Source: Segatella copri
GTDB lineage: Bacteria > Bacillota_I > Bacilli_A > Erysipelotrichales > Erysipelotrichaceae
Direction: 5' to 3'
DNA length: 64,000 nt
Assembly (NCBI GenBank): GCA_963654445.1
Contig: CAVKAP010000039.1
Span: forward strand, 5,208 to 69,207
Shown here: piece after piece, positions 1-28,360 of the stretch
Position numbering within the stretch: the first letter of the stretch is position 1
Layout of the letters: the number at the start of each line of letters is the position of its first letter
The notes under the pieces: generated by a model
What the model saw: only the letters and a program-made list of their open reading frames with translations
The model's database searches: none
What the model was told of the DNA's origin: nothing
Made by a program: the position numbers and the translations under genes

Positions 1-138
1 TGTTTCTAATGCGCCCTCTTTACCATGGCAATAATTCACTAAAACCTTTACGCCATTTTTCGCTAAATCAATGGCAATGGCTTGCCCTATTCCACTTGAA
101 GCCCCAGTTACTAAGGCAATTGAATCTGCTTTAAACAT
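1..138 (-). CDS. fabG: SDR / 3-oxoacyl-ACP reductase, N-terminal part only (runs off the left edge)
   Basis: Manual translation from ATG at 138: [36 protein letters not shown], containing the TGxxxGIG Rossmann motif; AGGAG RBS upstream; follows fabD. Confidence 0.75.
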
Positions 139-1069
139 AAAAAATCTCCTTTTTTAATTGTTCTCTTTGTTTCGGATTAGAAGTTAAAATCACCTTTTGT
201 TTCGGATCAATGCTTCGCATCAAGCCAGTCAATACTTTTCCGACACCAACTTCGGCAAACAACAAATCGTCTTCTGTATCTATGATCTTTTTGATGGAGT
301 CATACCAAAGCACGGTATGGCAGCATTGATTTCGTATTTCCTTTTTGATTTCTTCACAATCGCTGACATAATCGCCTTTGCAATTTAAGACAAGCTTTGT
401 CTTGGGCTCTTTAAACTCAATCGTATTGACATAAGCCATAAAAGGCTCTTCCATTTCCTTCATTAAAGGAGTATGAAAGGCATTGGATACCCGAATCGGA
501 ACGGTTCGTAAAGCCCCATGCTCCTTACAGCTTTTTTCTGCTTGTACGACGATTTCACTATTTCCTCCAATCACAATCTGATTTTGGGTATTATAAAGAG
601 CAACCACCAAGTGTTGTTGACTTTCATCGATTTCTTTACAAATCTGATTCACTTGTTCAAAGGATAAGCCCAATACCGAACACAGCATGCCCTCTTGTTG
701 ACATTGCGCCATATAATCCGCTCTTTTTTGAACCAAGGCAAAGGCTTGTTCCATCGTTAAAACACCCGCTGCTACCAAAGCTGAATATTGGCCAAGACTA
801 TGTCCAATCGCAATATCAGCATGAATCCCTTCTTTTTCAAGCAAGGTTAAATACGCCATATTCATGGCCGTTACAGCTAATTGAGTATTTTCGGTCTTCT
901 TTAATTCTTCGGCATTCGCATGTAAACACAAATCCTTGACATCTTTTCCCGTTATTTCCTGAGCAATTTCAAAAACCACTTCTACTTTTTCTATATCCTT
1001 TCCTAGGCTTCTAAGCATACCTGGCTTTTGTGTACCTTGTCCTGGAAACATAAAACATACTTGACTCAT
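131..1069 (-). CDS. fabD: Malonyl-CoA:ACP transacylase
   Basis: FPGQGTQ, GHSLGQY active site and SNAFH motifs; start reassigned to MSQVCF (ATG 1069) after an AGGAG-containing purine-rich RBS. Confidence 0.9.
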
Positions 1070-1560
1070 TGTTTTTCTTCCTTTCCTTTTTGATCGATAA
1101 ATTCCAAGATGGCTTTTAAGACGTCTAAATCCCAATTTTCAACCTTGTTCATCTTTTCATCGACCAATACCACCTTTACTTTGGCTTCTACTATTTTTTC
1201 ACCTTGTCGATAGGCTGCTTGTTTAAATTCAAACATGGGCTTATGACGAACAAGTAAATTGGTCTTCACTTGAATATTTTCAATACTTTCCTCTTTAAGC
1301 CCATCAAAGATTTCACTTTGTACACGTACAACGACAAAGCTTCCTAAATTTATCTTTTTATTCGTCTTTTTCTTTTCTTGATAGAACGTATAAAATTCTT
1401 CCATGATTTCAAATCGCGCCATTTCAAAGAATTCAAAAATCTTCGAAAAATGAAGCTGATGTCCATAAATACAATCAGAAAAACGAACAGTTATATCTGA
1501 AGAAAAAAGCTTTTTATTTTTCTCATTTGCTTTTAATCGATTTTGTAGTTCATTATCCAT
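1066..1560 (-). CDS. Hotdog-fold acyl-CoA/acyl-ACP thioesterase
   Basis: ITVRFSDC...HLHFSKIFEFFEMAR resembles the 4HBT/YbgC thioesterase signature; start at MDNELQ after GAGG. Confidence 0.65.
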   Translation of the reverse strand: MDNELQNRLKANEKNKKLFSSDITVRFSDCIYGHQLHFSKIFEFFEMARFEIMEEFYTFYQEKKKTNKKINLGSFVVVRVQSEIFDGLKEESIENIQVKTNLLVRHKPMFEFKQAAYRQGEKIVEAKVKVVLVDEKMNKVENWDLDVLKAILEFIDQKGKEEKQ

Positions 1561-2158
1561 AAGCCTCAAGTTCATTTTTCGAAACCTCCTGAATTGAAAA
1601 TTCCTCTAAGGTATTTTTCATACAGACACTCAAGTCATAGCCATCGAGGATGGAAAAATCTTTAAAATAATAAGAATGATCTTCATAGCGAATTTCATCC
1701 TGAAATATATCCTGTTTAATGGCTTTTTTATCCGCCCATCCACAGCCCAAGCATTTTAAGAAGGCTTCTTTTCGACACCAAACAAAGCTTGGATCTGCAT
1801 AGATTTCTCCTAAAAAAACTTGTGCTGCTTTGGGGGAAATGGCTGTTTTTGATTGAATATCTACACCTACTTCTTCTTGACTGATGACAAGGGCAAGATA
1901 GGATTGACTATGAGAGATATTAAAAAAGAAATGATCATCCAAATAAGGCTTGCCCTGTGCATTGATTTGTACAGCTTCTCTATCTTTTCCATAACGATTG
2001 AAGACATATCTCAACAATAGCTCCGATGCATACAAATGCTGGGCCTTTTCTTTTTTTAAGGCCTGTTGAATACGCTCTTTTCTCTCTTTTGAAAATTGCG
2101 AAAGCTTACGTGCATCGATTTCAATTTCACTTGTTTTTAGCAGGTATAATTCAGCCAT
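1553..2158 (-). CDS. Sfp-type 4'-phosphopantetheinyl transferase
   Basis: GKP, FNISHS, VGVDIQ and WCRKEAFLKCLG motifs. Confidence 0.9.
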   Translation of the reverse strand: MAELYLLKTSEIEIDARKLSQFSKERKERIQQALKKEKAQHLYASELLLRYVFNRYGKDREAVQINAQGKPYLDDHFFFNISHSQSYLALVISQEEVGVDIQSKTAISPKAAQVFLGEIYADPSFVWCRKEAFLKCLGCGWADKKAIKQDIFQDEIRYEDHSYYFKDFSILDGYDLSVCMKNTLEEFSIQEVSKNELEAYG

Positions 2159-2161
2159 TTT

Positions 2162-2539
2162 CTACTCCTTTTTTAATGCCAGCATCTCTTGATCCTTTTT
2201 TACGGTTGATCCAAGCGATACCATACAATCACTTACGATTCCATCCATTGGTGAAAGAATCTCATTTTCCATTTTCATCGATTCTAAAATAATTAAGCGT
2301 TGTCCTTTTGAAACCAATTCTCCTTTTTTTACAAGGATTGACGCAATCGTTCCAGGTAAAGGTGATTTCACAAAGGATGTATTCTCATCCTTTTCACTAA
2401 AATCAAAATCAGGGACATCAAGCTCCGTTAAATCATCATCCTCTTGTGATTCGGTATTTTTAACAATGTCAATGGTTGCTTTGGTGCTATCTACATCCAC
2501 AATGTATTTTTTTCCATTTAACGTTATATCGTATTTCAT
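2162..2539 (-). CDS. Biotin carboxyl carrier protein (1.3S/MmdC-like)
   Basis: VKSPLPGTI...ILESMKMENEI biotinylation motif; N-terminal YDITLNGKKYIVDV typical of this family. Confidence 0.9.
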   Translation of the reverse strand: MKYDITLNGKKYIVDVDSTKATIDIVKNTESQEDDDLTELDVPDFDFSEKDENTSFVKSPLPGTIASILVKKGELVSKGQRLIILESMKMENEILSPMDGIVSDCMVSLGSTVKKDQEMLALKKE

Positions 2540-2551
2540 ATTTTCCTCCGA

Positions 2552-4048
2552 TTATCTAGGACACTCATAGATATTTTTAATTTCGAAATCATTAATATTG
2601 ATATGCATTTTTGATGAAATGATTGCTTTTAATAAAACGCGTATGTCATCATCAATGCGATCTAAAGAAATTTTTGGGATATCCTGTGCTTGATTTTCAC
2701 TTTCAAAAATCGTATAGGTATAGGCGCCATCTTCCCTTTTTTCTTTTGCGAAAAATTGCTCGGCTAAACGTGGAAATAAAACATGAATCAAGGTATCTTC
2801 CATATTCAATCCATCTTTTAAGCATTTTTCTTTTACCAATTGATAGCTGTTTTCTTCTTCGATTGATTTTGGACCCTCGTTTACTTTTTCTATTAAAGCG
2901 GTATTGATTTGACCAGGTGCTTTGCCATATTCACCTAAAATATAAGCTTTAACTTCTTTTAGTAAGACCTTATAGCGCTCACCAGCAATCACATTGGCTA
3001 CTGCTTGCGTTCCAACCATTTGACTAATCGGGGTAACAAGTGGTGGATAGCCTAAATCCTTTCGAACCTTCGGTACTTCCTTTGCAACCTCATCAATTCG
3101 ATCTAAGATGCCTTGGGCTTTCAATTGAGATAATAGGTTCGAGTACATACCACCTGGAATTTGACTGATTAAACAATCCGGGTTGGTTTGCATTGCATGT
3201 ATATTGATGGTCTTCTCTTCAACCAAACGATCAAAGACCTTTTTAAAGTGATTATTTATTTTCGAAAGGGAGTCAATATTTAAATTGATTTCTTTTCCCA
3301 TATCCTTTGCGACTAGAGCCATGGTTTCTGTCGGTGCTTGTGATGTTCCACCAGAAAAAGAAGAAATGGCGGTATCAATTACATCTACACCAGCTTCAAT
3401 TGCCTTTAAACAAGTCATTTGGGCCATACCCGAAGAATTATGGGTATGTAAAATAAGGGGAACATGCAAGACTTCCTTTAACGCTTTCACCAGTTCATAG
3501 CTTTTATCTGGCATTAAGCAGCCTGACATATCCTTGATACAAATGGATTGAGCACCTAGTGCTTCCATTTCTAAAGCTAATTGGACATAGTCCTTTATTT
3601 TATGTACCGGACTTACTGTATAACAAAGCGCACAGGAAGGATGGCCACCAAAATCTAAGGTTGCTTGTAGAGCATCCTTAATATTATCGATGTCATTTAA
3701 CGCATCAAAGATTCGAATAATATCAATTCCATTTTTGATGGACGCTTCAATAAAATCACGAACGATTTCAGTTGGATAATGATTGTATCCCAATAAATTT
3801 TGTCCTCGAAGCAGCATTTGAAGCTTGGTGTTTGGCATCTTTTCACGAATCAGGCGCAAGCGTTGCCAAGGGTCTTCATCTAAGTAGCGAATACAAGCAT
3901 CAAAGGTTGCCCCGCCCCAGCATTCAACTGAGTAATAGCCAGCTTGATCCATTTCTTCTAAAACATCGATAAAATCTTCATTTCGCATACGCGTTGCTGC
4001 TAAGGATTGATTGGCATCACGTAATACTGTTTCTGTTATTCCTAGCAT
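2552..4048 (-). CDS. Pyruvate/oxaloacetate carboxyltransferase (OadA / transcarboxylase 5S-like), no biotin domain
   Basis: ETVLRDANQSL, ECWGGATFD, IKDMSG, HTH and PLVTPISQMVG motifs; start at MLGITE after GAGG. Confidence 0.9.
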   Translation of the reverse strand: MLGITETVLRDANQSLAATRMRNEDFIDVLEEMDQAGYYSVECWGGATFDACIRYLDEDPWQRLRLIREKMPNTKLQMLLRGQNLLGYNHYPTEIVRDFIEASIKNGIDIIRIFDALNDIDNIKDALQATLDFGGHPSCALCYTVSPVHKIKDYVQLALEMEALGAQSICIKDMSGCLMPDKSYELVKALKEVLHVPLILHTHNSSGMAQMTCLKAIEAGVDVIDTAISSFSGGTSQAPTETMALVAKDMGKEINLNIDSLSKINNHFKKVFDRLVEEKTINIHAMQTNPDCLISQIPGGMYSNLLSQLKAQGILDRIDEVAKEVPKVRKDLGYPPLVTPISQMVGTQAVANVIAGERYKVLLKEVKAYILGEYGKAPGQINTALIEKVNEGPKSIEEENSYQLVKEKCLKDGLNMEDTLIHVLFPRLAEQFFAKEKREDGAYTYTIFESENQAQDIPKISLDRIDDDIRVLLKAIISSKMHININDFEIKNIYECPR

Positions 4049-4058
4049 AATAACTACC

Positions 4059-5537
4059 TCATAGTGGAATATTTCCATGCTTCTTTTGAAGCTTTGAACT
4101 ATTTTTATTTTCAAAGGCTTTTATATCTTCAAAGACTCTTTGTCGTAAATCATTTAAGGAAATCACTTCATCAACATAGCCTTCCGATGCTGCAATTCTT
4201 GCGTTCATATATTTTTTCTTATATGCATCCACATATCGATCCTTTTGTGTTTCATCTTCAGCTAATTCTTTATGATATAAAATCGATACCGCACCTTCAG
4301 CACCCATAACTGCAAGAGTCGCTTTAGAGCTTGCATAGACATAATCCGCACCTAAATGTTTACTGCCCATTGCGATATAGGCACCTCCATAGGCCTTTCG
4401 TACGACCATTGTGATTTTGATTGTGGTTGCTTCTGAATACGCAAAGAGTAGCTTTGCGCCATGGCGAATGATTCCTTCATGTTCTTCTTCAATTCCTGGT
4501 AAATAGCCGGGTGTATCAACCAAAGTAAGAATCGGAATGGAAAAGGCATCGCAAAAGCGTACAAATCGTGCAGCTTTATCACTGGAGTTTCGATCAATAC
4601 AGCCTGAATTACGCATTGGATTGTTCGCAATAATTCCGACTGTAATATCATTGATTTTGGCAAAAGCCGTAATCATATTTGTCGCATAGTGTTGATGGAC
4701 TTCAATCATAGAATTTTCATCAACAATCGATTGAATCAGCGTATGCATATCATAAGAGGCTTTATCATCACTTGGAACAAGATCATCCACCAAGGTTTCT
4801 TTTTCAATATAAGAAATAAAACGATAAAACTTCTTTTCTTCAAAATACGATGGTAAGGTCTTAATTAATTTTCGAACCTCTACATAGCATTTCTTTTCAT
4901 TCGTAAATAAAAAATGAGAAACACCCGACTTTTCGGAATGAACCCTTGCGCCACCTAATTCTTGTAGTGAACACTTTTCACCCGTTACACTTTCAATCAC
5001 TTTATTGCCTGTAATATATAATTGCCCAATATGATCAACCATAAAGACAAAATCCGTTAACGCAGGTGAATAAGCTGCTGCTCCAGCACAAGGCCCTACA
5101 ATAATAGAAATTTGGGGAATAATACCAGAAGCCAAAGTGTTTTGATGCATGAGTTCACCACATCCAGCCAAGGCATTGATTCCTTCACTAATGCGTGCAC
5201 CACCTGAATCATAAAGTCCAATCACTGGGCATCTTGCCTTAATGGCTTGTTGAATCGTATGTGCAATCTTTCTTCCATGATTCAATCCAATCGAACCACC
5301 AAGAACTGTAAAATCCTGAGAAAAGATAAAAACCGTTTTCCCTCCAATTGTTCCTCGTCCACAAATCACACCATCATAGCTTGAAGATTTGGCATTGGCT
5401 TTTTCGTGGTTGTATTCATAATTATTGATACCGGAGCCAATCTCTCTAAAGGAATTCTTATCGAGTAATAATAGGATTCTTTCAATCGCATGATATTTCT
5501 GTTTATTATGTTGTTTTTCAATATTATAGTGATTCAT
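4059..5537 (-). CDS. Acyl-CoA carboxyltransferase (PccB / MmdA / transcarboxylase 12S-like)
   Basis: QDFTVLGGS, DSGGARI, GPCAGAAAYSPALTD, RKAYGGAY and C-terminal KKHGNIPL; ATG 5537 fits the AAAGGAG RBS spacing. Confidence 0.92.
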   Translation of the reverse strand: MNHYNIEKQHNKQKYHAIERILLLLDKNSFREIGSGINNYEYNHEKANAKSSSYDGVICGRGTIGGKTVFIFSQDFTVLGGSIGLNHGRKIAHTIQQAIKARCPVIGLYDSGGARISEGINALAGCGELMHQNTLASGIIPQISIIVGPCAGAAAYSPALTDFVFMVDHIGQLYITGNKVIESVTGEKCSLQELGGARVHSEKSGVSHFLFTNEKKCYVEVRKLIKTLPSYFEEKKFYRFISYIEKETLVDDLVPSDDKASYDMHTLIQSIVDENSMIEVHQHYATNMITAFAKINDITVGIIANNPMRNSGCIDRNSSDKAARFVRFCDAFSIPILTLVDTPGYLPGIEEEHEGIIRHGAKLLFAYSEATTIKITMVVRKAYGGAYIAMGSKHLGADYVYASSKATLAVMGAEGAVSILYHKELAEDETQKDRYVDAYKKKYMNARIAASEGYVDEVISLNDLRQRVFEDIKAFENKNSSKLQKKHGNIPL

Positions 5538-5570
5538 ACGCATCTCCTTTTGTCTTTTTTCGTTATCTAA

Positions 5571-5623
5571 TTTATATCATGCGATAATATGAACGTCAAT
5601 AACTTTTTATCGTATTACGATAA
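5571..5623 (-). promoter_or_regulatory. Sigma-A promoter (TTGACG-17-TATAAA, extended TG) with a 17-bp palindrome TTATCGTAATACGATAA 7 bp upstream of -35
   Basis: Read directly; the same architecture recurs at 19112-19164 and 30491-30543. Confidence 0.75.
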
Positions 5624-5660
5624 TCTATTATTGTATTTAATAAAGTTTTTGTTTTTAAAA

Positions 5661-5701: not shown

Positions 5702-6460
5702 TTATTCACATACAATAACATTTGTATCAGTTTCTAACTGTTCTAATTTTGTCGTTGTCACTAAGGTATTAAATTCATTTAAATTCGCCATCGTATAGAA
5801 TCCCGCAACGCCCGTTTTACTTGAATCAATCACCAAATACTTTTCCTTCGAATGTTTCATGGCCGCTTGTTTTATTTTTGCGGTATCAATTTCGGCAGTA
5901 TACACATTCAAATCATCTAGCGTCAATCCAACTGCACTGATGAACGCTTTGTCAAAATGAAAATAATCCATATAATCTAAGGTCATCGGTCCTAAATTCA
6001 TTTGATAGCGCGCACTGCTTTCACCACCTAAGTAATAGAGCTTATATATGGCTTGATCGTCCTTTTTAATCAATTGGTTATGTGTTACAACCACAATATT
6101 TTTGTTTCTAAAATATTCATTCATATACATAAAGGTTGTTCCACCATCAATAAAAACACAATCCCCATCCTCTATCAATTCCGCACATTTTTGACAAAGC
6201 TTCTTTTTTTCTTCAATATTCATTGTCATCCGTTTATTCATATGTAAATCAGTATCGTCAGATAATTGTTTGTCTGTATTTTGAACTTTAATTGCACCAC
6301 CATGGACGCGTTTGCATAAATTTTGCGATTCTAATTTTTCAAAATCTCTACGAATTGTACAAATGGATGCCTTTAGCTCTTCACTTAATTGGCTTAAATA
6401 AACAATCCCTTCGGTATTAATCTTATCTAAAATAATTTTTTGTCTTTCTCTAGCTAGCAT
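5702..6460 (-). CDS. DeoR/GlpR family transcriptional regulator
   Basis: N-terminal HTH TIRRD...RVHGGA; FIDGGTT sensor motif. Confidence 0.92.
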   Translation of the reverse strand: MLARERQKIILDKINTEGIVYLSQLSEELKASICTIRRDFEKLESQNLCKRVHGGAIKVQNTDKQLSDDTDLHMNKRMTMNIEEKKKLCQKCAELIEDGDCVFIDGGTTFMYMNEYFRNKNIVVVTHNQLIKKDDQAIYKLYYLGGESSARYQMNLGPMTLDYMDYFHFDKAFISAVGLTLDDLNVYTAEIDTAKIKQAAMKHSKEKYLVIDSSKTGVAGFYTMANLNEFNTLVTTTKLEQLETDTNVIVCE

Positions 6461-6516
6461 TTGAATACCACCTTCTAGGACTATTCTATCATTTTATGCG
6501 TGGATTATTCGCTTTT

Positions 6517-7545
6517 TTAATCAACAGGTTTTCGAATCACTCCTAAAACAATGGCTCCTACAAAAATCCCAATCATTTGCGCTAAGATATACATTAAAGG
6601 ATTGCCTGCAACCAATACAGGAAAAATGCCTCCATGTGGAACAGGGGACGAAACACCGCTTACGGCCGCAACAACACTTGCTACACCACAGCCAATCATT
6701 GTGCCTGGAAGAATATGTAAAGCATCCTCAACCAAAAAGGGAATCGTTCCTTCGGTAATTCCTACTAGACCCATCAATCCAGCTGATTGTGCATTTACAC
6801 GATCTGCATCTGTCCATTTATTTTTGAACAAGTAAGAGGATAATAAAACAGCCAAGGGTGGAATTGATGTACAAACAAAGAACATCGCATTCACTTCATA
6901 ATTCCCTTCGGCAATCATGGCTAGACAAAAGATTGTAACAGCCTTACAAATCGGTCCTCCCATATCAATTTCACAAATCAATCCAAGTACAAAGGCAAAT
7001 AAAATAATATTACTTTTCTCTATGATTGCTAGCAGCTTTAAAATCCACTCTGAAAACAAAACAATTGGCGTATTGATAAGATAGATATACCCCATACCTA
7101 AGACAAAGACAGATAAGATTGGAATAATTAATACAGGCATAATGGGTTTAATGACACTTGGCACCTTCCAGGTTTTAATCCATCGAACAAAATATCCTGC
7201 CAAAATACCCATGAATAAAGCACCTAAAAAGCCAGCCTTTACCGTGGTATCACCTACAGGATTATTGGCAATATACCCAAGAATAAAACCAGGTGTTAAA
7301 GCCGGCTTGCCTCCAATGGAATAAGCCACATAAGCACCTAAGACAGGCACCATCATCGTCATACCGGCACTGGCTACTAGATTTAAATTTTTAAGAAATG
7401 AATTGGTAATAATATAGCCTGATTTACTTGGGGTACCACCAATAAAGGAAATGGCTAAAAGAACCCCACCTGCGACAACAACCGGAACCATATAAGAAAC
7501 ACCAGTCATCAACGCTCTTTGAATACGTTTTAGTTCTGTTTTCAT
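6517..7545 (-). CDS. PTS fructose-family EIIC
   Basis: LMTGVSYMVPVVVAGG, DMGGP, GITEG and PHGG motifs. Confidence 0.92.
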   Translation of the reverse strand: MKTELKRIQRALMTGVSYMVPVVVAGGVLLAISFIGGTPSKSGYIITNSFLKNLNLVASAGMTMMVPVLGAYVAYSIGGKPALTPGFILGYIANNPVGDTTVKAGFLGALFMGILAGYFVRWIKTWKVPSVIKPIMPVLIIPILSVFVLGMGYIYLINTPIVLFSEWILKLLAIIEKSNIILFAFVLGLICEIDMGGPICKAVTIFCLAMIAEGNYEVNAMFFVCTSIPPLAVLLSSYLFKNKWTDADRVNAQSAGLMGLVGITEGTIPFLVEDALHILPGTMIGCGVASVVAAVSGVSSPVPHGGIFPVLVAGNPLMYILAQMIGIFVGAIVLGVIRKPVD

Positions 7546-7546
7546 A

Positions 7547-7864
7547 TTATTGATTCACCTTATAGAATTCAATAGCTTCATTTAAAACCTCTTCAGGATT
7601 GGAAACACATTTTGATACATCGGCTTCATAGGTACAAATTTCATCAAAACGTTCACGACCTTCAATTTCAACACTGATGGCAAGGATGGCTAAATCGGCA
7701 CTTTCGATATCTTCCATTTCTAATTCATTTTCAATTCCAATGGAACCCTGTGTTTCCACTTTAACTTCATATCCATGCTCTTTACATACTTTTTCTAAAT
7801 TTTCAGCTGCCATATATGTATGAGCAATCCCAATAGGGCAAGCAGCCACACCAACGATTTTCAT
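7547..7864 (-). CDS. PTS fructose-family EIIB
   Basis: ACPIGIAHTYMAAE and KVETQGSIG. Confidence 0.95.
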   Translation of the reverse strand: MKIVGVAACPIGIAHTYMAAENLEKVCKEHGYEVKVETQGSIGIENELEMEDIESADLAILAISVEIEGRERFDEICTYEADVSKCVSNPEEVLNEAIEFYKVNQ

Positions 7865-7886
7865 ATTTTCTCACTTCTCTTTCTAG

Positions 7887-8357
7887 TTAAAATCCAATAT
7901 TATTCAACAAATCAAATACAATTGCTTTATCGCTTTCATGCATCAATTTTTCTCTAAAGTCATCATGCATTAAGCTTCTTGAAATTTTAGATAAAATTCT
8001 TAAATGTGTCTTTTCAGCCCCTTCTTCTGGGATACCTAACATAAAAACCATCTTTACCTTATTATCCTTTGTCTCATCCCATTGAATGGCATCATGAAGT
8101 CGCATAAATAGAATAAATGGATTTTGAATGGTTGAACTTTTACCATGGGGAATCGCAAGCCCATAGCCAATTGCGGTCGATATTTCCTTTTCTCTATTAA
8201 ATACCGCCTTAGCATATTCTTCTTGACTTTCTACCAATCCTTCTTTTTCAGCCTTATTGGCAAGATAGACAATAAGATCATCTCGACAATTAAAGTCTTT
8301 ATCCAAAAAGATGAGCTCTTTATTAATTACTTTCGCATCCATACATTGATCCTTCAT
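7887..8357 (-). CDS. PTS fructose-family EIIA
   Basis: RE...STAIGYGLAIPHGK phospho-His motif. Confidence 0.93.
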   Translation of the reverse strand: MKDQCMDAKVINKELIFLDKDFNCRDDLIVYLANKAEKEGLVESQEEYAKAVFNREKEISTAIGYGLAIPHGKSSTIQNPFILFMRLHDAIQWDETKDNKVKMVFMLGIPEEGAEKTHLRILSKISRSLMHDDFREKLMHESDKAIVFDLLNNIGF

Positions 8358-9073
8358 TATTTCTTTTCATCTAAAGCCAATACTGTTGGCACCGATGCAT
8401 AGCCAACCCCCATACGATCAATCCCCATATCTATTAATTTCAAGAAATGTTCACGCGTACGAATATGACCACTTCCTTTTACTTTGATTTGATCTCCAAC
8501 CTCATCCATCATGATTTGAACGATTCGAGGATCTGCTCCCTTATCATCATGTCCGGTCAAAAATCCCGTACTTGTTTTTACCCAATCTGCTTTTCCGGCA
8601 ACAACGGCATGACAAGCTTTACGAATTTCATCATCAGTCAAGGCCCCTGTTTCTAAAATCACCTTTAATTCAATTCCCTTTTCATGACAAACATCTGCAA
8701 CCGCTCGAATATCCTTTGTGACTTCGTCATATTTTCCACTACGAATCAAGCCAAAATTAGCCACCATGTCAACTTCTCCTACCGTATCGTATTGAAGTGC
8801 TAATTTTGCCTGTGCTACCTTGGATTCTGTTGATGTATTTCCAAAAGGAAAGTCACAGGTTGGTCCTAACTTGGTTTCTGTTCCTTTTACATATGGCTCA
8901 CAAAGAGCCATATAGCCTGGTGAAATACAAACCTGTGCAACGCCTAAGCTAACACCTACTTTTGTCCACTTAATGATCTCCTCCTCAGAAAACTCTGGTT
9001 TCAAAACAGAATAATCAATATACTTTGCTAATTCCGTTTGACTCATTTCTGATGCTTTTTTGATTGATTTCAT
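8357..9073 (-). CDS. deoC: Deoxyribose-phosphate aldolase-like class I aldolase
   Basis: IDYSVLKP, DFPFG, EVDMV, KVILETG and VKTSTGF motifs; divergent KGSGHIR. Confidence 0.7.
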   Translation of the reverse strand: MKSIKKASEMSQTELAKYIDYSVLKPEFSEEEIIKWTKVGVSLGVAQVCISPGYMALCEPYVKGTETKLGPTCDFPFGNTSTESKVAQAKLALQYDTVGEVDMVANFGLIRSGKYDEVTKDIRAVADVCHEKGIELKVILETGALTDDEIRKACHAVVAGKADWVKTSTGFLTGHDDKGADPRIVQIMMDEVGDQIKVKGSGHIRTREHFLKLIDMGIDRMGVGYASVPTVLALDEKK

Positions 9074-10932: not shown

Positions 10933-12501
10933 TTATTTCACCATCTCTTTAATTACAATCTTTCCAAAATCCATACTCTTTCGATCCTTATAAACCTCTT
11001 GATTATAAACAAGCCCTAAATAATTGAGCTGGCAAAAACATTTTACAGGTCGATCAAAGGTGATTTGAGTTTTCTTTAAACTTGAATCAAAGGACAATTC
11101 AATTTTTTTCACATGCTTTGTCGAATAATCATGCTTTAAAAAATCTAAGAAAATCATTTCTTCGGTCACGGTATGTCCATCCTCTGGATCATACTTTCGA
11201 TGTGCAATGGTTCCATCCTCTAAATAAATCGTCATATCATAGCTCAAATCATAGAGTGCAAATTGAAAGATGGGTTGCACCTTCTTTTCTGAGAGCATTT
11301 TAGCTCTCGTAAAAATTTCAATTTGATTTGAGCTTGCGTGATATCTTCTTTCTAGGATAAAATCTTCGTTTTCTTGTTTGGCATATAAATCATCCTTCTG
11401 CATTTCAAGCTGGATATTCTTTTTATAATTTGGAATGAAGATACCTTCAATATATGGTGCACAAATATGCGGCCACATTTCCTTATAGTAGCTTTGATCT
11501 GCTAAAAAGGCTGATTTTTCTTCAAAATCAAAGGATCCTAATTCAATCTTCTTTTCTTCAAATTTCACCTTTCCTAATTCACGCATTTCATCAATAAAGA
11601 AGGTATATTCGTCATCACAACCTTCAACATGTAATGAAATGGTATCAACACCCTCAGGAATATTAAACTCAGTATGAAAATCATCCATTTTTATGATTTC
11701 ATGATGTTTATCTTTAAAAAGCAGATCAATTGAGCTTTCTCTTAAGATCTTCCCTAAATCATCAAAAGAATAGGCTGTAAAGTTTTTATCACATGGCCAA
11801 ATTTTCACCTGTGCCTTTTTCATATGTAGACCTGCAATATTCCCACTGATGGTATCAATAAAAAGGGTATGCTCTTTTTTACGTGACATACAATCAATTT
11901 GAATGAAACGATCATCAATGATTTTTTCAGCATGATAGAGATTGTTCTTATCAATTTTTTGCATATTTCTTGGAACACTATCTCCATCGACATAATCAAA
12001 GCGATTCGAAAGCTTGATGACACCTGGTAAATAATTATGAAGAACATAGTCACCATATAAGGTACGATGTTCATCGATGATCACAAAGCCTAATTTACGC
12101 ATCATATAAAAAGAAGCCGTATTTTCTTTTGCGACTTCACAAATAAAGTCATTATAGCCTCGTGATAGAAGCTCTTTGATAATCATGCTGAACATATCTT
12201 GAATGGTGAACATCGCCTTTTGATATTTATAATCAATAATCAATGCACAGACAAAGACCTGATTTTTATTGGCAACCTTTTGACCACCTGTTTTATAAGC
12301 TCCCACATAGCTTACAATTTGTCCATCGGCTCTTCCAACGACTCCAAAGATCGTTCCTTTTTTTCGTTGATAATCAATGAATTTTTCACCGGTTAAATCC
12401 TCATCATATTTTCCAATCCAAAATTGATTTCTTTTCATTAAAGCTGCAACGGCATCCGCATCCTTTGTTTCATCATAGAACTCAAATTTAATTTTTGACA
12501 T
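10933..12501 (-). CDS. Large protein with N-terminal GNAT acyltransferase domain and unknown C-terminal region (paralog A)
   Basis: FVCALIIDYKYQ...KENTASFYMMRKLGF; start MSKIKF chosen to match the paralog and RBS. Confidence 0.65.
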   Translation of the reverse strand: MSKIKFEFYDETKDADAVAALMKRNQFWIGKYDEDLTGEKFIDYQRKKGTIFGVVGRADGQIVSYVGAYKTGGQKVANKNQVFVCALIIDYKYQKAMFTIQDMFSMIIKELLSRGYNDFICEVAKENTASFYMMRKLGFVIIDEHRTLYGDYVLHNYLPGVIKLSNRFDYVDGDSVPRNMQKIDKNNLYHAEKIIDDRFIQIDCMSRKKEHTLFIDTISGNIAGLHMKKAQVKIWPCDKNFTAYSFDDLGKILRESSIDLLFKDKHHEIIKMDDFHTEFNIPEGVDTISLHVEGCDDEYTFFIDEMRELGKVKFEEKKIELGSFDFEEKSAFLADQSYYKEMWPHICAPYIEGIFIPNYKKNIQLEMQKDDLYAKQENEDFILERRYHASSNQIEIFTRAKMLSEKKVQPIFQFALYDLSYDMTIYLEDGTIAHRKYDPEDGHTVTEEMIFLDFLKHDYSTKHVKKIELSFDSSLKKTQITFDRPVKCFCQLNYLGLVYNQEVYKDRKSMDFGKIVIKEMVK

Positions 12502-12618
12502 CTTAAACACTTCCTTTACTTTTTTCTCCGTTTATTTTTTTATCTTCAAAAACTTTAAAAACAAGAAAATAAACGGAAGCTTGTAAGATGCAAATAAATT
12601 GCATCTTACAAATGATTC

Positions 12619-13482
12619 TTAGTATTTTTTAACCTTTCGTGACATATTTAGAATGGCTAGACAATAGAATACAACACCCGTTGCCAACAAGACCAGAATA
12701 TGAAACCAAGCCTTTGGATGCCAATCGCCATACACAAAGGTAACACCAACATGCTCCTTAAAGCCCTTTAAAACACCAACAGGTAGATTTTCAAAGCCCT
12801 TATGCATGCCATCTGCCATCAATAATTGTCGGAATAAAGCAGCTGCATGGGAGCATGGGAAGCATTTAACGACCCATTGTACACCATTTGGAAGACTTCC
12901 AATACAGATGTAAGCTCCAATTAAGAAACCAATCAAGGTACCAAGAATAATACTAATGGTTGTATAGGTATTACTTGTTTTAACAAAGGAAATAATAAAG
13001 CAGACCATTGCACTGGAAGCAAAAGCTGACAATAAAATGACACCGAGTATTTTACAAGCAATGACAAAGCTGACCAATTCTCCACCTTTGGCAACAATAT
13101 AAGCTTCTCCAAAGATAAAGGTAATAATGGACATCACGATACTGATAATTAAACCTGTACACATATAACCAGCTACAACACTTCTTCGCTTGAGTGGAGA
13201 GGAGTAAAAATCTTTTATGCATTTATGTTCTCGATCACTGACCATCACCGCATAGGCTCCCATACTTGTTGTGATTGCCGAAGAAGCCAGCATGCCTGCA
13301 ACAACCCATGAGTTCATAATATAGTTTTTATATTTAATATGTGAATCTAATCCCTTTGTGATGGAATCTCCAATAAAGAAGATAAACAATCCAAAGATAA
13401 TAATGACCCCTAACAAAGAAAAGAAGACCGCTCCTTTATCCTTAAAGAAGATTTTTAATCCACGTTTTGTCATCTGAATCAT
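12619..13482 (-). CDS. ABC-2 type exporter permease
   Basis: About 6 hydrophobic segments; FYSSPLKR motif; coupled to the ATPase gene. Confidence 0.85.
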   Translation of the reverse strand: MIQMTKRGLKIFFKDKGAVFFSLLGVIIIFGLFIFFIGDSITKGLDSHIKYKNYIMNSWVVAGMLASSAITTSMGAYAVMVSDREHKCIKDFYSSPLKRRSVVAGYMCTGLIISIVMSIITFIFGEAYIVAKGGELVSFVIACKILGVILLSAFASSAMVCFIISFVKTSNTYTTISIILGTLIGFLIGAYICIGSLPNGVQWVVKCFPCSHAAALFRQLLMADGMHKGFENLPVGVLKGFKEHVGVTFVYGDWHPKAWFHILVLLATGVVFYCLAILNMSRKVKKY

Positions 13483-14399
13483 TCTCTTAACTCCTTTCCA
13501 GTGATGTTGAGGAATACATCATCCATTGTTCCATATAAGACTTCAAAGCTTTCAATTTGATCTTTGATGGGTGCTAAGATATCGAGTGCTTCAATGGTTG
13601 ATTTAATTCTTACATCAATAAAATCGGATAAAGCTTTCCATTCCAGCTTTTTCTGATCTAAATAGGCTTGAATTTCTTTTTCATAGTCCTTTTTGATTTT
13701 CATTTTAATATGCTCAAAGCTATACTTTTCTTTTAATTCATAAGGTGTTCCTTGCGCTACAATTAAGCCTCCATCCATCACTACGACATAATCGGCTTTG
13801 GCTGCTTCTTCCATGTAGTGCGTAGTTAAAAAGATTGTCATATTATTTTCTTTTTGAAGACGCTCTACCGTTTCCCAGATATGCTTTCGTGTTTGTGGAT
13901 CTAAACCCGTAGTTGGTTCATCCAAGAAGAGGATTTTCGGTGTATTTAATAGTGCACGAGCGATATCGACTCTTCGTCTTTGACCTCCTGATAAGGTGCC
14001 ATATTCACGATCAATAAAACCTTCAACCTCAGCATATTGTGCTGCATTTTCAACCGCTTTTTTACGTTGGGCCTTGCTTCGATAATAAAAGCCTGAACGA
14101 ATCATGAGATTTTCTTTTACAGTCAGCTTCTTATCCATCAAATTATCCTGAAAGACAACGCCAATGCTTTCGCGTATCTTATCGGATTCGGACTCTAGGT
14201 CGTATCCGGCAATTTGAACCTTTCCTTCATCATATAGACTTAAGGTACAAAGGATATCAATGGTTGTTGATTTCCCTGCCCCGTTTGGTCCTAAAAATGC
14301 AAATAAGGAACCTTCTTTGACTATAAAATCAATTCCTTTTACCGCTTTTACTTTTCCAAATGATTTCTTCAAGGAAGAAACTTTAATTACTTCATTCAT
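13479..14399 (-). CDS. ABC exporter ATP-binding protein (DrrA-like)
   Basis: GPNGAGKST, LSGGQRRR, LDEPTTGLD and TTHYMEEA. Confidence 0.95.
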   Translation of the reverse strand: MNEVIKVSSLKKSFGKVKAVKGIDFIVKEGSLFAFLGPNGAGKSTTIDILCTLSLYDEGKVQIAGYDLESESDKIRESIGVVFQDNLMDKKLTVKENLMIRSGFYYRSKAQRKKAVENAAQYAEVEGFIDREYGTLSGGQRRRVDIARALLNTPKILFLDEPTTGLDPQTRKHIWETVERLQKENNMTIFLTTHYMEEAAKADYVVVMDGGLIVAQGTPYELKEKYSFEHIKMKIKKDYEKEIQAYLDQKKLEWKALSDFIDVRIKSTIEALDILAPIKDQIESFEVLYGTMDDVFLNITGKELRE

Positions 14400-14412
14400 G
14401 GTATTGCTCCTT

Positions 14413-15411
14413 TCACTGAGGTAAAAATTGATCAACAATCGTTCCTGTATTCTTTTGTTTGGCTTGTTGATACACATAATTTGAAAGTGCTAAATCTAAA
14501 ACACCTAATCCAAATGGGCTATAAATACTTGCCTTTTTTTCATCACGTGCTGGAATCGTTCCCTTGACGACTTCCGCAATCGATCCAGCCACAAAATCAC
14601 TGGATTTTAGCGCTTGATAGCTTAAGTGTATCGATGTTCTTTCTCGACATACATGGTCAAAATCATCAACGATATTGTGTGCTTGTTCAATGATTGGTAC
14701 ACCCAAATCTCTAAGTGAAATACCAAGAATGGTATGATCACTGGTCAAGGTGTCAATATGATCTAGATAAGGAATTCCAGCTGTTGTCGCAAAAGAGACT
14801 AGCTTTGTATATTGAAACAATTCTTCAATATCTTTACATGGAATAAATTCATAGCTGGATTCTTTATGCCATGACATAAATTGATTCATTCGATCCATCG
14901 ATAAGTCATACAAATAAACCTTGTGAATACTTGGAAATTCATTCTTTACAAATTGAAGAATTTCTTTATTGATTCGTCCACAACCAATGAAACCGATGTT
15001 GCTTTCTTCTTTGTTTCCATGAAGGTATTTTGCAGCTAAGGCTGCACTGGCTGCTGTTCTTTTGGCACTAATGATAGAACCTTCCAATACGGCTTGTACT
15101 CTTCCTGTTGTCATTTCGTTTAAGAAGATGGCCGCAGAAGCTCTTTCCATATTGTGTTCAATATTCCCTGGAAAGGAAGAAATCCATTTCATTCCGGCCA
15201 CATTCATATCTCCACCTAAATAAGCAGGTAAGCCAATGATTCGATTTCGATCATCATTGGGAAAGCGTAGAAAGATAGATTGAGGCAAAGCACTCTTTCC
15301 TTCATGATGGGCTAAATAAGTTTTCTTTACAATTTCAATGATTTTTGATTCCTGACCTTCCAATTCTTGATTGACTTGATTGGCTGTTATGACAAGTAAT
15401 TGATTTTCCAT
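14413..15411 (-). CDS. sbnB: 2,3-diaminopropionate biosynthesis protein SbnB (ornithine cyclodeaminase family)
   Basis: RIIGLPAYLGG, GMKWISSFPGN, ISAKRTAASA, ISLRDL and SPFGLGVLDL. Confidence 0.88.
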   Translation of the reverse strand: MENQLLVITANQVNQELEGQESKIIEIVKKTYLAHHEGKSALPQSIFLRFPNDDRNRIIGLPAYLGGDMNVAGMKWISSFPGNIEHNMERASAAIFLNEMTTGRVQAVLEGSIISAKRTAASAALAAKYLHGNKEESNIGFIGCGRINKEILQFVKNEFPSIHKVYLYDLSMDRMNQFMSWHKESSYEFIPCKDIEELFQYTKLVSFATTAGIPYLDHIDTLTSDHTILGISLRDLGVPIIEQAHNIVDDFDHVCRERTSIHLSYQALKSSDFVAGSIAEVVKGTIPARDEKKASIYSPFGLGVLDLALSNYVYQQAKQKNTGTIVDQFLPQ

Positions 15412-15425: not shown

Positions 15426-16352
15426 CTATAAATTCATATATTCTAAATGTTTACTGTATAAGTTTCCAAAATATCGATCGCCTCGATCATGGGAAACAAG
15501 AACGATTTTTTTATTTTTTAAATCATGTTTTTTAATATATTGTTCAACTCCGGTCATGACACATCCTGAGCTTCCACCTAGAAACAGCTGTTCTTTTCGC
15601 ATCATTTTAAATAAAGCTTTGGTGGAATCGCTTTCACTCACAATAATCTTATCATCTATGGATGCACGAAGGAAATTATCTGTTCGAATGCTTGAACCAA
15701 TACCGGTAAAATGCTTCACTTTTTTTGTTTCTGGATTAAAGATTTTCGATCCTTCAACATCAACCGCAACCACCTTTATATCTTTATTGTATTCATGCAT
15801 TGCCGCTGAAATACCAGCGACTGTTCCACCACTGGATACCGCAATAAACAAATAATCAATATCTGGTCTTTGGCTTAAAATTTCTTTTCCAACAGTCTCT
15901 TTATAGGCTTCTGCAACCAAAGGGTTTTCATATTGATTGATCCAATAGGCATTTTCATGACTTTGTATGTACTCCTTTACGACCTCTAAACGTTTCTTTA
16001 AATAGCTTCCATTTTCATCCGCTTCACTGACTTTAATGGTATTGGCTCCATAGCCTTTAATTAAAAATTCATTTAAATGAGAAATGGAGGGATCAATCAC
16101 AATGGTCACATCCAAGTGAAGGCGAGCACCAATGGCAGCAAGGGCTACTCCCATATTTCCTGAAGAGCTCTCAATGATTTTTGTGTTCTGATCAATGATT
16201 TTCTTTTCTAACAATTGACTTAAAACATACATTGCACAACGATCCTTGGCACTTCCATAGAGGTTGTTTCCTTCTAATTTGATATAAACATCATTTTCTT
16301 TTTGACTTTCTAATTGCACCAAAGGTGTTTTCACTTTAAACTCTTCTAACAT
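15426..16352 (-). CDS. sbnA: 2,3-diaminopropionate biosynthesis protein SbnA (PLP, cysteine synthase family)
   Basis: GSAKDR PLP-lysine, IESSSGNMG, NQYEN, AVSSGGT and HDRGDRY; adjacent to sbnB. Confidence 0.88.
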   Translation of the reverse strand: MLEEFKVKTPLVQLESQKENDVYIKLEGNNLYGSAKDRCAMYVLSQLLEKKIIDQNTKIIESSSGNMGVALAAIGARLHLDVTIVIDPSISHLNEFLIKGYGANTIKVSEADENGSYLKKRLEVVKEYIQSHENAYWINQYENPLVAEAYKETVGKEILSQRPDIDYLFIAVSSGGTVAGISAAMHEYNKDIKVVAVDVEGSKIFNPETKKVKHFTGIGSSIRTDNFLRASIDDKIIVSESDSTKALFKMMRKEQLFLGGSSGCVMTGVEQYIKKHDLKNKKIVLVSHDRGDRYFGNLYSKHLEYMNL

Positions 16353-16368: not shown

Positions 16369-17433
16369 TTAGCTAAATTTCATTTCTTTTTGTATTCCTT
16401 TTTTTGTATATTTATTGATTAATTGAATAAATGTATTAAAGTCTGCTCCTCTACTTCGCGCTTTTGTTTCGCTGGTTAAGGATGGATTGGATGAAAAGAA
16501 GGAATATTTACTTCTTACCTTTAAAGAATAGGGAAGAAAATCTTCTTTCTTTTCAATCAGTTCACACTTTTCTTTATTCATATGTAGTTGACAAGAGTAA
16601 GGATAATCAACCAATTCAATTTCCATAACTGCTTGATCAACCATCAATTTATTTGAATCATAGGTAAGCGATAAGCCTTTAAAAAAGGTATGGAGCTTAG
16701 ATTTTTCATAGTCTTCCTTGCTTTGGTTCTCTTTGATCTTCGTAACAAAGACTTCACCAAATTCTAAGAACTCATCGATTGAAACAAAGGGCTTTTTAAA
16801 TAGCTCCTGGATTTCTTGGCTTAAGCCTCTTGTTTGTGAAAAAGCTTCTCCTTCTTTTTCTAATGCCTTTAAATAGCTTTGCGTTTGATAATCTAAAAAT
16901 TGGGTTTCTAATAATTGTCCACCCGGACAGAAGATCTTATCACATCGCTTGCCATAGATGAGATCAAGCTGTTGATCTAAGGCATCAAAATTTTGTTCAT
17001 AATTGAAGTAAGCACCGGTACTAAAGACCAGGATTCTTTGTTTCGAAAGATCATATCTTTCTTCATGTTGAGTGGTTTTCCCATCTTTTGTAATGACCTT
17101 TTCATCATATAAAGGAAGCAAGCGATCCATGATTCGTTTTACATTGGCTGGCATTCCAAAAAAATAGAGAGGAAAGCTAAAGATAACAAGATCTGCCTGA
17201 AGATATTTTTGAAAAAGCTCTGTCATATCATCCGTTTGTGCACATCTTCCTTTTTCATCTTGCATACAATGAAAGCAGCCTAGACAATCCTTGATATCCA
17301 ATTGATAAGAGCATACCTCTTCAATTTCATACGCATTTTGTTTATTCAAGCCCTTTAGAAAAGCTCTGGTTAATTTCATTGTGGTACTTTGTTTTCTTTT
17401 CGGGCTTCCATTGATTAATAGTATTTTATTCAT
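16369..17433 (-). CDS. Flavodoxin-like / iron-sulfur flavoprotein with C-terminal extension (possibly SCP2-like)
   Basis: INGSPKR..ST, CLGCFHC...C cluster and PLYFFGMPANVK...DR. Confidence 0.75.
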   Translation of the reverse strand: MNKILLINGSPKRKQSTTMKLTRAFLKGLNKQNAYEIEEVCSYQLDIKDCLGCFHCMQDEKGRCAQTDDMTELFQKYLQADLVIFSFPLYFFGMPANVKRIMDRLLPLYDEKVITKDGKTTQHEERYDLSKQRILVFSTGAYFNYEQNFDALDQQLDLIYGKRCDKIFCPGGQLLETQFLDYQTQSYLKALEKEGEAFSQTRGLSQEIQELFKKPFVSIDEFLEFGEVFVTKIKENQSKEDYEKSKLHTFFKGLSLTYDSNKLMVDQAVMEIELVDYPYSCQLHMNKEKCELIEKKEDFLPYSLKVRSKYSFFSSNPSLTSETKARSRGADFNTFIQLINKYTKKGIQKEMKFS

Positions 17434-18724
17434 CCCAAGCACTTCCTTTATAAGCTATAAAGTCTTCAATATAATTTGCCGCAATTCGTGGGGTCCTTTT
17501 TCCATCTATTAAATGTTTAGAAATCATTTGATTCACTCGTTCCATTTCTTCTTTATAATCCTTTGTTTGAATGAGTGAAGCCATCGCCTTTTCAATCTTT
17601 TGTTCGGTTGCATCATAGAAGGGAATCATTTCTCCACATTTCGAATGCTTCAATAAATTTTCAATATTTTGTCTTTGTTCGAAGGTCGTTGGAATAGAAA
17701 CGATAGGACACTGACCAGCAATCATTGCATAGAGGGTTCCTTGTCCAGCTTGAATGATGGCAACATCACACATAGACGCAATTTCAATCAATGGGAACTT
17801 TTCACAGAAGTGATAATTTTCTGGGTACTCATTCATTTCTTCGGTCGTAAACATATCAAAGATTGAAATAAAGAAATCACAATCAAAGCTTTTACTTGCT
17901 TGTAAAATCTTCTTTAAAAGTTCTTTATTTCCCGCAGTTCCTACAGAAATAAGAACCTTCTTTCGTCCATTTTTTTGATTCATGACATCCTTTACAATTT
18001 GTGGCATTTCGATATATTGATTATTTAAAATCGGACCAATAAATTTGAAATGATCGTTTTCTTTTAAGTCGGGAAAGATTTCCTTCGCATCCGACATTAA
18101 ATTTAAGTCACCTGTATACATATCTAAATCACAGCTTAATGGTTGACATCCCGAGCTTTCTAAAACTTCATTCCATCGCTTTGTCGTTTGACAATCCCTT
18201 AATACACGCTCACAGGCAATTTTATTTTCATAGAGAGAGCGTAATTCTTGATAAGAACGCTTCGTCTTTTTATTGGCTTCTTTGGACTGTTTTAGAACTT
18301 GTTCTAGTTGAAGCTTAGATATGGAAGCCGATAAGGACCAAACGATTGGAACCTGAGCTATTCGAGCTGAAATCGTTAAGCTCATACGATAGCCTGTCAA
18401 AATAACAACGGGCTTATATTTTTTTATGAGTTTTATCTCTTCTTCAACGATTTTCTGGATTTCTTCCTTGCTAGCAAAATCACTTCCATAACGATCCATT
18501 GCCAACATTTTTGAAATTCTCTCTTTTGTATACCATTGCGAATCATACGCAATCGTCTCTCGAATGTAGTCTTTATCCTTTAATAAGGAATCATAGGTTC
18601 CTGTTCCAATAAATACGATGGAATAACCTCGATCCTTTAATTCATCCGCAATTTCAACCATTCTTTGGGTTTCACTCCCATTAAAAAGAGCCGCACCCAC
18701 TAAAATATATTGTTTATTGTTCAT
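17426..18724 (-). CDS. GT-B fold glycosyltransferase (GT1/MGT-like)
   Basis: N-terminal IADELKDRGY; C-terminal LISVGT, IIQAGQGT and IPTTFEQRQN nucleotide-sugar-binding segment. Confidence 0.8.
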   Translation of the reverse strand: MNNKQYILVGAALFNGSETQRMVEIADELKDRGYSIVFIGTGTYDSLLKDKDYIRETIAYDSQWYTKERISKMLAMDRYGSDFASKEEIQKIVEEEIKLIKKYKPVVILTGYRMSLTISARIAQVPIVWSLSASISKLQLEQVLKQSKEANKKTKRSYQELRSLYENKIACERVLRDCQTTKRWNEVLESSGCQPLSCDLDMYTGDLNLMSDAKEIFPDLKENDHFKFIGPILNNQYIEMPQIVKDVMNQKNGRKKVLISVGTAGNKELLKKILQASKSFDCDFFISIFDMFTTEEMNEYPENYHFCEKFPLIEIASMCDVAIIQAGQGTLYAMIAGQCPIVSIPTTFEQRQNIENLLKHSKCGEMIPFYDATEQKIEKAMASLIQTKDYKEEMERVNQMISKHLIDGKRTPRIAANYIEDFIAYKGSAWDE

Positions 18725-19052
18725 TGCTTTCACCTTCAATTCGTACGAAAAAGCTTTCTTCTACCAAGAGCTGATTATTTTTTTGATTCGTTATCTTCCC
18801 TTGAAACAAAATACGATTCTCTTTTCTTTTAGGATGGAGTCGCAAACTTAATTCATCGTATAGCTTTGCGCTTGAAATGAATTTACATTGAAATTGTTCA
18901 ATGGTATAAGAGATGGAATTCATCGAACCATAGGTCTCTAAAATCCATTGAAGAATCGCTTGTTCCATCCAGTTAAAATAGACGGGATGATGTACGATAT
19001 TGTATGGATCCGTATCTGTCGGACCAACAAGAATCTGTTTTTCAATATCCAT
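18714..19052 (-). CDS. Acyl-CoA thioesterase (YbgC/4HBT family)
   Basis: DTDPYNIVHHPVYFNWMEQA signature. Confidence 0.85.
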   Translation of the reverse strand: MDIEKQILVGPTDTDPYNIVHHPVYFNWMEQAILQWILETYGSMNSISYTIEQFQCKFISSAKLYDELSLRLHPKRKENRILFQGKITNQKNNQLLVEESFFVRIEGESNEQ

Positions 19053-19111
19053 TAAACTCCCCTCCATTTTCTTTATCGTTTCCTTTAAATTATTTATCTT
19101 TATACATTAAA

Positions 19112-19164
19112 TTTATATCATGAACCAATTTTATCGTCAATATATTTTTATCTTTTCTCGATAA
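19112..19164 (-). promoter_or_regulatory. Sigma-A promoter (TTGACG-17-TATAAA) with TTATCGAGAAAAGATAA box 7 bp upstream of -35
   Basis: Same geometry as the 5571-5623 promoter. Confidence 0.75.
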
Positions 19165-28358: not shown

Positions 28359-28360
28359 AG

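Follow-up and report, generated by a model that had tools for sequence, protein, structure and literature searches.

The stretch of DNA analyzed here, referred to as the window, comprises 64,000 nt (positions 5208-69207) of contig CAVKAP010000039.1 (C39) in assembly GCA_963654445.1, which is 85% complete, consists of 107 contigs and is labelled G000; window coordinates are used unless stated otherwise. Judged from its sequence, the locus at the left end of the window is a cluster of the cyl (granadaene) type for a highly reducing polyketide synthase (PKS) of type II, a split relative of the red-pigment cluster of group B Streptococcus (GBS), and its two operons, one for tailoring and one for chain building, are halves of a single cyl-family cluster that have come apart and changed places. 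The product is probably a lipid related to granadaene with a different head group, not yet isolated. On our best reading, which we regard as fairly probable, the split cluster would make an exported glycosyl-polyenoyl-2,3-diaminopropionate (Dap). The original prediction had described the locus as a probable undescribed biosynthetic system joining Dap, an acyl chain and a sugar. The genes that it listed in both operons are all present, intact and on the minus strand. The term undescribed was not sustained, as the system is a cyl operon with its defining genes just left of the window. The identity was recognized because these genes (FabG, AcpC, FabZ, CylF and CylI) sit there, in 5.2 kb that hold the remainder of the chain-building operon; the ketosynthase (KS) and acyl carrier protein (ACP) that the prediction had thought might lie left of position 1 were found as a double KS and an ACP, together with FabZ and CylF.

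Granadaene is a pigmented, haemolytic ornithine-rhamnosyl-dodecaene. Its pathway is largely inferred from homology, and the roles of CylE and CylF are proposals in the literature (PMC6985545). A plasmid search with the GcvT-like protein of the left flank returned 55 records, the best of which were Bacillus cereus-group genes, one of them annotated cylF. Four plasmid regions were taken from that search, and the locus was compared gene by gene with the cyl-like operons on three plasmids, which stood in for the GBS cyl operon in all protein comparisons. The identities were 31-39% for the KS, 24-30% for CylF, 46-53% for the ACP, 37-52% for FabZ and 46-52% for FabG, and the permease was 28-29% identical to the lactic-acid-bacterial copies. 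The core of cyl operons has been given as seven genes, cylA, G, acpC, Z, E, F and H/I (PMC6985545), and a homologue of each is present at the locus and its left flank; functional equivalents of CylD, CylK, CylJ and CylB are all present as well. The N-terminal half of CylI carries C162, H294 and H331 and the C-terminal half none of them, as in four comparison CylI proteins. This confinement of Cys-His-His to the N-half was seen in 6/6 family members and 4/4 comparison proteins, and corresponds to an active KS joined to an inactive chain length factor (CLF). In a tree with few outgroups and some long branches, the KS N-half grouped with the comparison CylI N-halves (100/99), apart from three housekeeping FabF proteins. 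Moreover, the KS matched the ishigamide KS (PDB 6KXD-F) with an E value of 5e-67.

Related loci were found in eight genomes by a GTDB scan (G002 and G434-G440) and on two contigs by a metagenome scan (L042 and L043), making 11 with G000. In G434-G437, which are 4/4 of the other-lineage genomes with the junction covered, the KS gene and the tailoring genes form one operon, and the first thioesterase gene (TE1) is the next gene after the KS gene. The earlier proposal that the two operons belong to one system, to be judged by their co-occurrence, was thus borne out by contiguity. In the congener G002 (G001, G003 and G004 are also congeners), the cluster is split as in G000, the gap holds a different sugar operon, and the ABC genes have moved. 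The phosphotransferase system (PTS)/DeoC operon between the halves was rejected as part of the system on account of that different operon and because nothing lies between the halves in G434-G437. A short open reading frame that starts like a signal peptide and has a promoter-like site of its own was observed in G002 between the moved ABC genes and TE1 (L015:9360-9915).

The gene content of the relatives varies. The transcarboxylase module is in the clusters of G002, G436 and G437 and not in those of G434 and G435, in which AccA/AccD-like matches occur elsewhere in the genome, and G436 is without both the glycosyltransferase and the flavoprotein. A stand-alone condensation-type gene (HHxxxD) is present in five loci, a PIG-L deacetylase gene in three and a GT4 gene in two. 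PIG-L was considered as an alternative to SbnAB and rejected, as L042 has both; G438 is cut off upstream. Four clusters span 39-52% GC, which may fit sporadic transfer. The cluster is rare, being found in 1/400 other genomes of the host family and 0/400 sampled around G436, and this rarity limits its general weight. In a phylum sample of 399 scored genomes (two were not scored), there was no full-length match to the GNAT acyltransferase besides G000, and 13 weak generic GNAT matches were obtained. Plasmids yielded no distant member of the GNAT family.

The original prediction had also tied the two operons together by a shared promoter box. The box is real, with 74% identity over 70 nt, and it is not a private link of the two operons. 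Its pattern occurs at 11 genome sites versus 0 in 10 block shuffles, some of the sites stand before secreted-looking proteins, and three sites outside the two operons score as high as the boxes do against each other. Upstream of the contiguous operons of G434-G437 no copy of the box was found, and all three split pieces of G002 have one in front of them. These patterns suggest co-regulation within a wider, genome-wide regulon.

The predicted head group would come from SbnA and SbnB, a pair that makes L-Dap from O-phosphoserine (OPS) and glutamate (PMC10906522). SbnB passed its family cut-off (TIGR03944; 386.4 vs 326.9), as did three homologues, and its best Protein Data Bank (PDB) match was 4M54 (E 1.2e-40). 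The best PDB match of the window SbnA was SbnA (E 1.7e-53), and its TIGR03945 score of 295.7 bits far exceeds that against CysK/M (cysteine synthase; 179.6). The residues by which SbnA selects OPS are Arg132, Tyr152 and Ser185 (PMC12414870); R121, Y141 and S173 of the window protein align with them and are invariant in 7/7 sequences. The SbnA-like enzyme would convert OPS and glutamate to N-(1-amino-1-carboxyl-2-ethyl)-glutamic acid (ACEGA), from which SbnB would release L-Dap and 2-oxoglutarate. SerC, a source of OPS, is present in 5/5 carriers tested. Among nine informative loci, SbnB is in eight and SbnA in seven (G438 and L043 are cut off, and G440 is cut off for SbnA). As the original prediction had it, no nonribosomal peptide synthetase (NRPS) or NRPS-independent siderophore (NIS) synthetase came into view: searches of the 85%-complete G000 for NRPS condensation (C) domains and IucA/IucC gave 0 matches, with adenylation and ATP-grasp enzymes not searched. 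An NRPS or NIS consumer of Dap in G000 was set aside on this basis.

The acyl transfer would fall to the first of two paralogous GNAT proteins, GNAT1 and GNAT2, which are 54% identical and have only weak Pfam scores. The family aligned by hhalign with the Lactococcus/Lactiplantibacillus pair of CylE-position proteins (99.2%, 364 columns) and with the Bacillus-type CylE-position set (99.9%, 425 columns), and in a small plasmid-protein set its profile matched CylE-position proteins with E values of 1.6e-21 to 6.8e-18. The two top Atlas clusters for GNAT1 are named CylE (0.87 and 0.86), which we treat as leads only. In the AlphaFold model of GNAT1 (pLDDT 83), a GNAT domain makes up the N-terminal part and the C-terminal domains are rich in beta structure. 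Foldseek with this model returned beta-galactosidase domains and generic GNATs, which fitted poorly overall, and no PDB entry matching the whole protein well, and a PDB profile search gave weak GNAT matches only. The family comprises 31 clusters at 52-93% identity and 79 proteins in a profile search, which reached distant relatives of 20-30% identity; one member (P0007) is located on a contig of 3.35 Mb. GNAT1 has Glu at the position where CylE proteins have Glu, presumably that of the general base of RimI; this Glu125 is kept in 28 GNAT1-type rows and in 37/46 rows of a wide alignment. GNAT1 is a probable amide-forming enzyme. In G434 and G436 the GNAT is the sole amide-forming enzyme in a cluster with SbnAB, and in G002 sbnB lies 8 nt before GNAT1. 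GNAT2 forms its own clade with an SH-aLRT of 100, and this lineage's GNAT1 copies are its sister group; of the six rows in the clade, two nearly duplicate other rows. Because E125K, A89R and D154F (GNAT1 numbering) occur in all six rows, GNAT2 probably uses another, more acidic acceptor or is a non-catalytic partner.

What the sequences show is which genes are present, their homology, their active-site residues, how the operons are built and which genes co-occur. Every chemical step of the following scheme is inferred, as are expression, the chain length, the sugar, the acylated amine and what GNAT2, the flavoprotein and the thioesterases do. The transcarboxylase-like module, which would supply malonyl-CoA in the place of CylX, and FabD would load malonyl onto AcpC. 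The CylI KS-CLF, FabG and FabZ would then carry the chain through extension, reduction and dehydration but no enoyl reduction, so that a conjugated polyenoyl-ACP results, as has been proposed for granadaene (PMC6985545) and for the fun cluster (PMC6498181). SbnA and SbnB would provide L-Dap from OPS and glutamate, GNAT1 would pass the chain to an amine of Dap, which stands where granadaene has ornithine, the CylJ homologue would add a sugar, and the ABC transporter would export the product; GNAT2 would probably serve a different, more acidic acceptor or act as a non-catalytic partner. In the original prediction, a GNAT acylated an amine with a dedicated chain, the glycosyltransferase glycosylated it and the ABC transporter exported it. 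This chemistry follows granadaene logic, whereas the naming of Dap as the acylated amine is something we infer rather than observe.

As the searches turned up no known enoyl reductase, a conjugated polyene is the most likely chain. FabK was not found in G000, G002 or G437; FabI, FabL and FabV were not searched as families. The prediction had left room for the fab genes being the sole housekeeping type II fatty acid synthase (FAS II), and this alternative was rejected. FabH, FabK, a stand-alone FabF and separate AccA/AccD were not found in the 85%-complete G000, and the KS stands apart from the three FabF proteins. The cluster, FabF and any FabH match are all missing from the 98%-complete congeners G003 and G004, and G434, G435 and G436 keep a separate housekeeping FabF besides the cluster. 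As a side observation, G003 and G004 are probably fatty-acid auxotrophs, and G001 has a full fab operon.

Several points weigh against the polyenoyl-Dap reading. The related loci are kin, so that their counts are not independent, and the incompleteness of G000 makes its absences weak. The SbnA score lies below the family cut-off (295.7 vs 349.95), and the protein is filed as SbnA-like; four homologues score 281-293 bits, so that 5/5 scanned copies fall at 281-296, all under 350. At the positions that match K100 and R224 of SbnA, which we take to be glutamate-binding positions, the window SbnA has Ser and Lys. The GNATs, at about 525 aa, are shorter than CylE (652-1038 aa) and only 13-15% identical to it in the profile alignments. 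Finally, G437 has a full cluster and a 59%-identical GNAT, yet its cluster contains neither SbnA nor SbnB and a genome-wide search gave no SbnB, which means that the GNAT family is not tied to Dap supplied in-cluster. This genome, together with the CylE-type Glu retained by GNAT1, would suit a product that is granadaene itself or a close ornithine/lysine analogue, with SbnAB as passengers or Dap used at another position or in another pathway. We consider this improbable, since six further operons, five in other genomes and one on a metagenome contig, contain SbnAB, a seventh, cut-off locus has only SbnB in view, four of the clusters span the GC range given above, and no other Dap-using enzyme was found in G000 by the C domain and IucA/IucC searches. 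Moreover, rmlC was found in 1/5 carrier genomes and not in G000, so rhamnose as the sugar is not assured.

The chain may instead be reduced, giving a non-pigment membrane amino-glycolipid in which the FeS-flavoprotein-SCP2 protein acts as the enoyl reductase and which serves as a private lipid for hosts without FAS II. The SCP2-like part of the flavoprotein and the lack of any other KS in G000, G002 and G437 would agree with such a role. However, G434-G436 have their separate FabF, the genus does not need the cluster, as G003 and G004 live without it and without FabF, G436 is without the flavoprotein, and KS-CLF fusions of this clade give polyenes in the known case (PMC6985545); a reduced lipid is thus unlikely. 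A di-acyl or further decorated Dap, formed via GNAT2 here and via the stand-alone HHxxxD condensation-type acyltransferase in relatives, appears quite unlikely. The condensation-type gene does adjoin sbnB in G435, G439, G440 and L042, with HHxxxD kept in 4/4 aligned copies, it is absent from both loci that have GNAT2, and the changes in GNAT2 are coordinated. Nevertheless, G434 and G436 have neither gene, G437 has the condensation-type gene without SbnAB, and GNAT2 is without the Glu that is presumably the general base, as in RimI.

In the case of CylF, it has been proposed that the protein makes ammonia for ornithine synthesis by ornithine cyclodeaminase, and cyclodeaminase and pyridoxal phosphate (PLP) enzyme genes were placed in actinobacteria and, partly, Chloroflexi (PMC6985545). 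The cyclodeaminase-like gene at the present locus is SbnB by family score. CylF stands directly before cylI in 6/6 full clusters, and a Priestia megaterium plasmid carries fabD-fabG-acp-fabZ-cylF-cylI with a thioesterase gene and a major facilitator superfamily (MFS) gene (L018:9825-19684). In 29 kb of this plasmid, the annotation of which is incomplete, no full-length CylE is annotated, and a 132-aa GNAT lies upstream. As CylF is kept together with SbnAB and also occurs without full-length CylE on the Priestia plasmid, a role in chain building is favoured. The cluster thereby challenges the proposal of CylF as the ammonia source for ornithine (PMC6985545).

If the polyenoyl-Dap reading is true, the cluster would give probably gut-dwelling bacteria an exported polyene lipid that is new and akin to a membrane-active pigment, and the product might serve in competition, protect against oxidation or affect the host. 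With the chain and sugar of granadaene, for which an [M+H]+ of 677.380 is given (PMC6985545), the product would have an [M+H]+ near 649.348, lower by C2H4; a different chain length or sugar would shift this value. A cyl cluster with its own amine pathway also offers a direct test of what CylE accepts. More tentatively, scattered and largely uncultured gut Firmicutes may produce polyene-Dap lipids as a family whose tailoring is combined in varying ways (deacetylation, a further acylation, a single sugar or two), in which the duplicated CylE has a new acceptor here, CylF serves chain building, and the "ornithine cyclodeaminases" of some cyl operons might be SbnB; this wider view is possible, although doubtful.

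Table 1. Features of the locus, its left flank and related loci (window coordinates unless a contig or locus is named)
Feature	Position	Strand	Basis
Sigma-A-type promoter and upstream palindromic box, tailoring half	19110-19179	-	74% over 70 nt to 5569-5638
Hot-dog thioesterase TE1	18714-19067	-	PF03061, TIGR00051; 23% to thioesterase of Bacillus cyl operon
CylJ-like GT1/GT28-like glycosyltransferase	17426-18739	-	Match to a cylJ-annotated protein (29.6% over 412 aa, E 5e-47)
FeS-flavoprotein-like, flavodoxin-fold, probable SCP2-like lipid-binding C-terminal part	16369-17442	-	PF02525/PF03358
SbnA-like PLP enzyme	15426-16352	-	TIGR03945 best family; closest PDB entry SbnA
SbnB	14413-15411	-	TIGR03944 above cut-off; closest PDB entry 4M54
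CylA/CylB-like ABC exporter (ATPase and permease)	12619-14477	-	Permease 28-29% to CylB-position, ATPase 34% to CylA-position proteins
GNAT1, CylE homologue	10933-12510	-	hhalign profile matches
GNAT2, duplicate of GNAT1	9325-10896	-	Own clade in tree
DeoR-EIIC-EIIB-EIIA-DeoC sugar operon separating halves	5702-9073	-	Pfam
Promoter and palindromic box, chain-building half	5569-5638	-	74% to 19110-19179
Transcarboxylase-like module (12S-type and 5S-type carboxyltransferases, biotin carrier)	2162-5543	-	PF01039, PF02436/PF00682, PF00364
12S-type carboxyltransferase	4059-5543	-	PF01039
Pyruvate-carboxylase-B/5S-type carboxyltransferase	2552-4114	-	PF02436/PF00682
Biotin carrier	2162-2539	-	PF00364
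Sfp-type phosphopantetheinyl transferase (PPTase), CylK equivalent	1553-2158	-	25.6% to cylK-position protein of Lactococcus
Second hot-dog thioesterase TE2	1066-1575	-	Weak TIGR02799/TIGR00051 match
FabD, malonyl-CoA:ACP transacylase, CylD equivalent	131-1135	-	PF00698, TIGR00128
FabG (CylG), 5' end only	1-138	-	Continues left of window
AcpC, 111-aa ACP	C39 4176-4511 (left of window)	-	
FabZ	C39 3679-4161 (left of window)	-	
CylF, 364-aa GcvT-like protein	C39 2572-3666 (left of window)	-	
CylI KS-CLF fusion, 809-aa double ketosynthase	C39 128-2557 (left of window)	-	
Further box sites	~30480-30545; contigs C13, C17, C18, C43, C47, C77, C78	- (window site)	
Condensation-type acyltransferase/PIG-L genes in relatives	L013:6306-9983; L042:1076-5888; L006:1743-2507		

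The four-Cys motif of the flavoprotein is invariant in all four Cys in 6/6 sequences, and its Atlas matches are flavodoxin-SCP2 clusters (0.93-0.96); the protein may serve redox tailoring or protection. TE2 was found in 5/5 other full clusters. A 14-bp terminator-like hairpin lies between the ABC permease and GNAT1 (12580-12612), and the GNAT pair may be expressed separately. After the last stop of cylI, 127 nt remain to the contig end; a hairpin was read there by eye, and the terminator scan made no call. An Rfam scan gave no match, and the viral contigs searched held no family member. The ATC-hydrolase-family gene upstream of the tailoring operon (19236-19898, minus strand) was rejected as part of the system, being absent from that place in related loci. 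Farther along (21992-29836, minus strand) lie genes that score above cut-off for TIGR02677, TIGR02678 and TIGR02680, along with a TIGR02679-like gene that falls below its cut-off, which together we take to be a Wadjet-type anti-plasmid cluster.

In a largely open-access literature search, no paper joining granadaene with diaminopropionate was found. The main text of PMC6985545 does not mention diaminopropion*, cysteine synthase, Lachnospir* or Erysipelo*; its supplement, with the full operon figures, may show the arrangement. What is new here is SbnA/SbnB inside a Firmicute cyl operon, together with a duplicated CylE whose second copy departs from conserved acceptor-site residues. With the GBS granadaene cyl operon and the cyl-like operons of Lactococcus, Lactiplantibacillus and the Bacillus cereus group (PMC6985545, PMC4315905), the locus shares homologues of CylG, AcpC, CylZ, CylF, CylI, CylE, CylA/B and CylJ. 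Also common to them are the PPTase, the malonyl transacylase, a carboxylase module, cylF directly before cylI and, with FabK as the family searched for here, no recognized enoyl reductase. Unlike in those operons, SbnA/SbnB are in the operon, CylE is shorter (~525 aa) and duplicated, and a FeS-flavoprotein-SCP2 gene and two thioesterase genes are present. Furthermore, a transcarboxylase-type module replaces CylX, rhamnose genes are absent from the cluster, the cluster is split into two operons, and relatives of the window locus carry optional C-domain-like, PIG-L and GT4 genes.

The Dap genes resemble Staphylococcus aureus SbnA/SbnB (PDB 5D84, 4M54) and, as described in PMC10906522, SulH/SulG and CmnB/CmnK. 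The best PDB and NCBIfam matches are SbnA/SbnB and the OPS-selecting residues are kept, whereas here the genes are coupled to a type II PKS and a GNAT, and SbnA falls below the family cut-off. The fun cluster of Lactobacillus reuteri R2lc is likewise a granadaene-like type II cluster of a gut Firmicute with its own carboxylase, and it is predicted to link a polyene to an amino acid; the likeness is by description only, and the available text on that cluster mentions no Dap genes (PMC6498181). The ishigamide highly reducing type II PKS (PMC7949117) shares the KS-CLF polyene chemistry and differs in having separate KS and CLF proteins and in belonging to Streptomyces.

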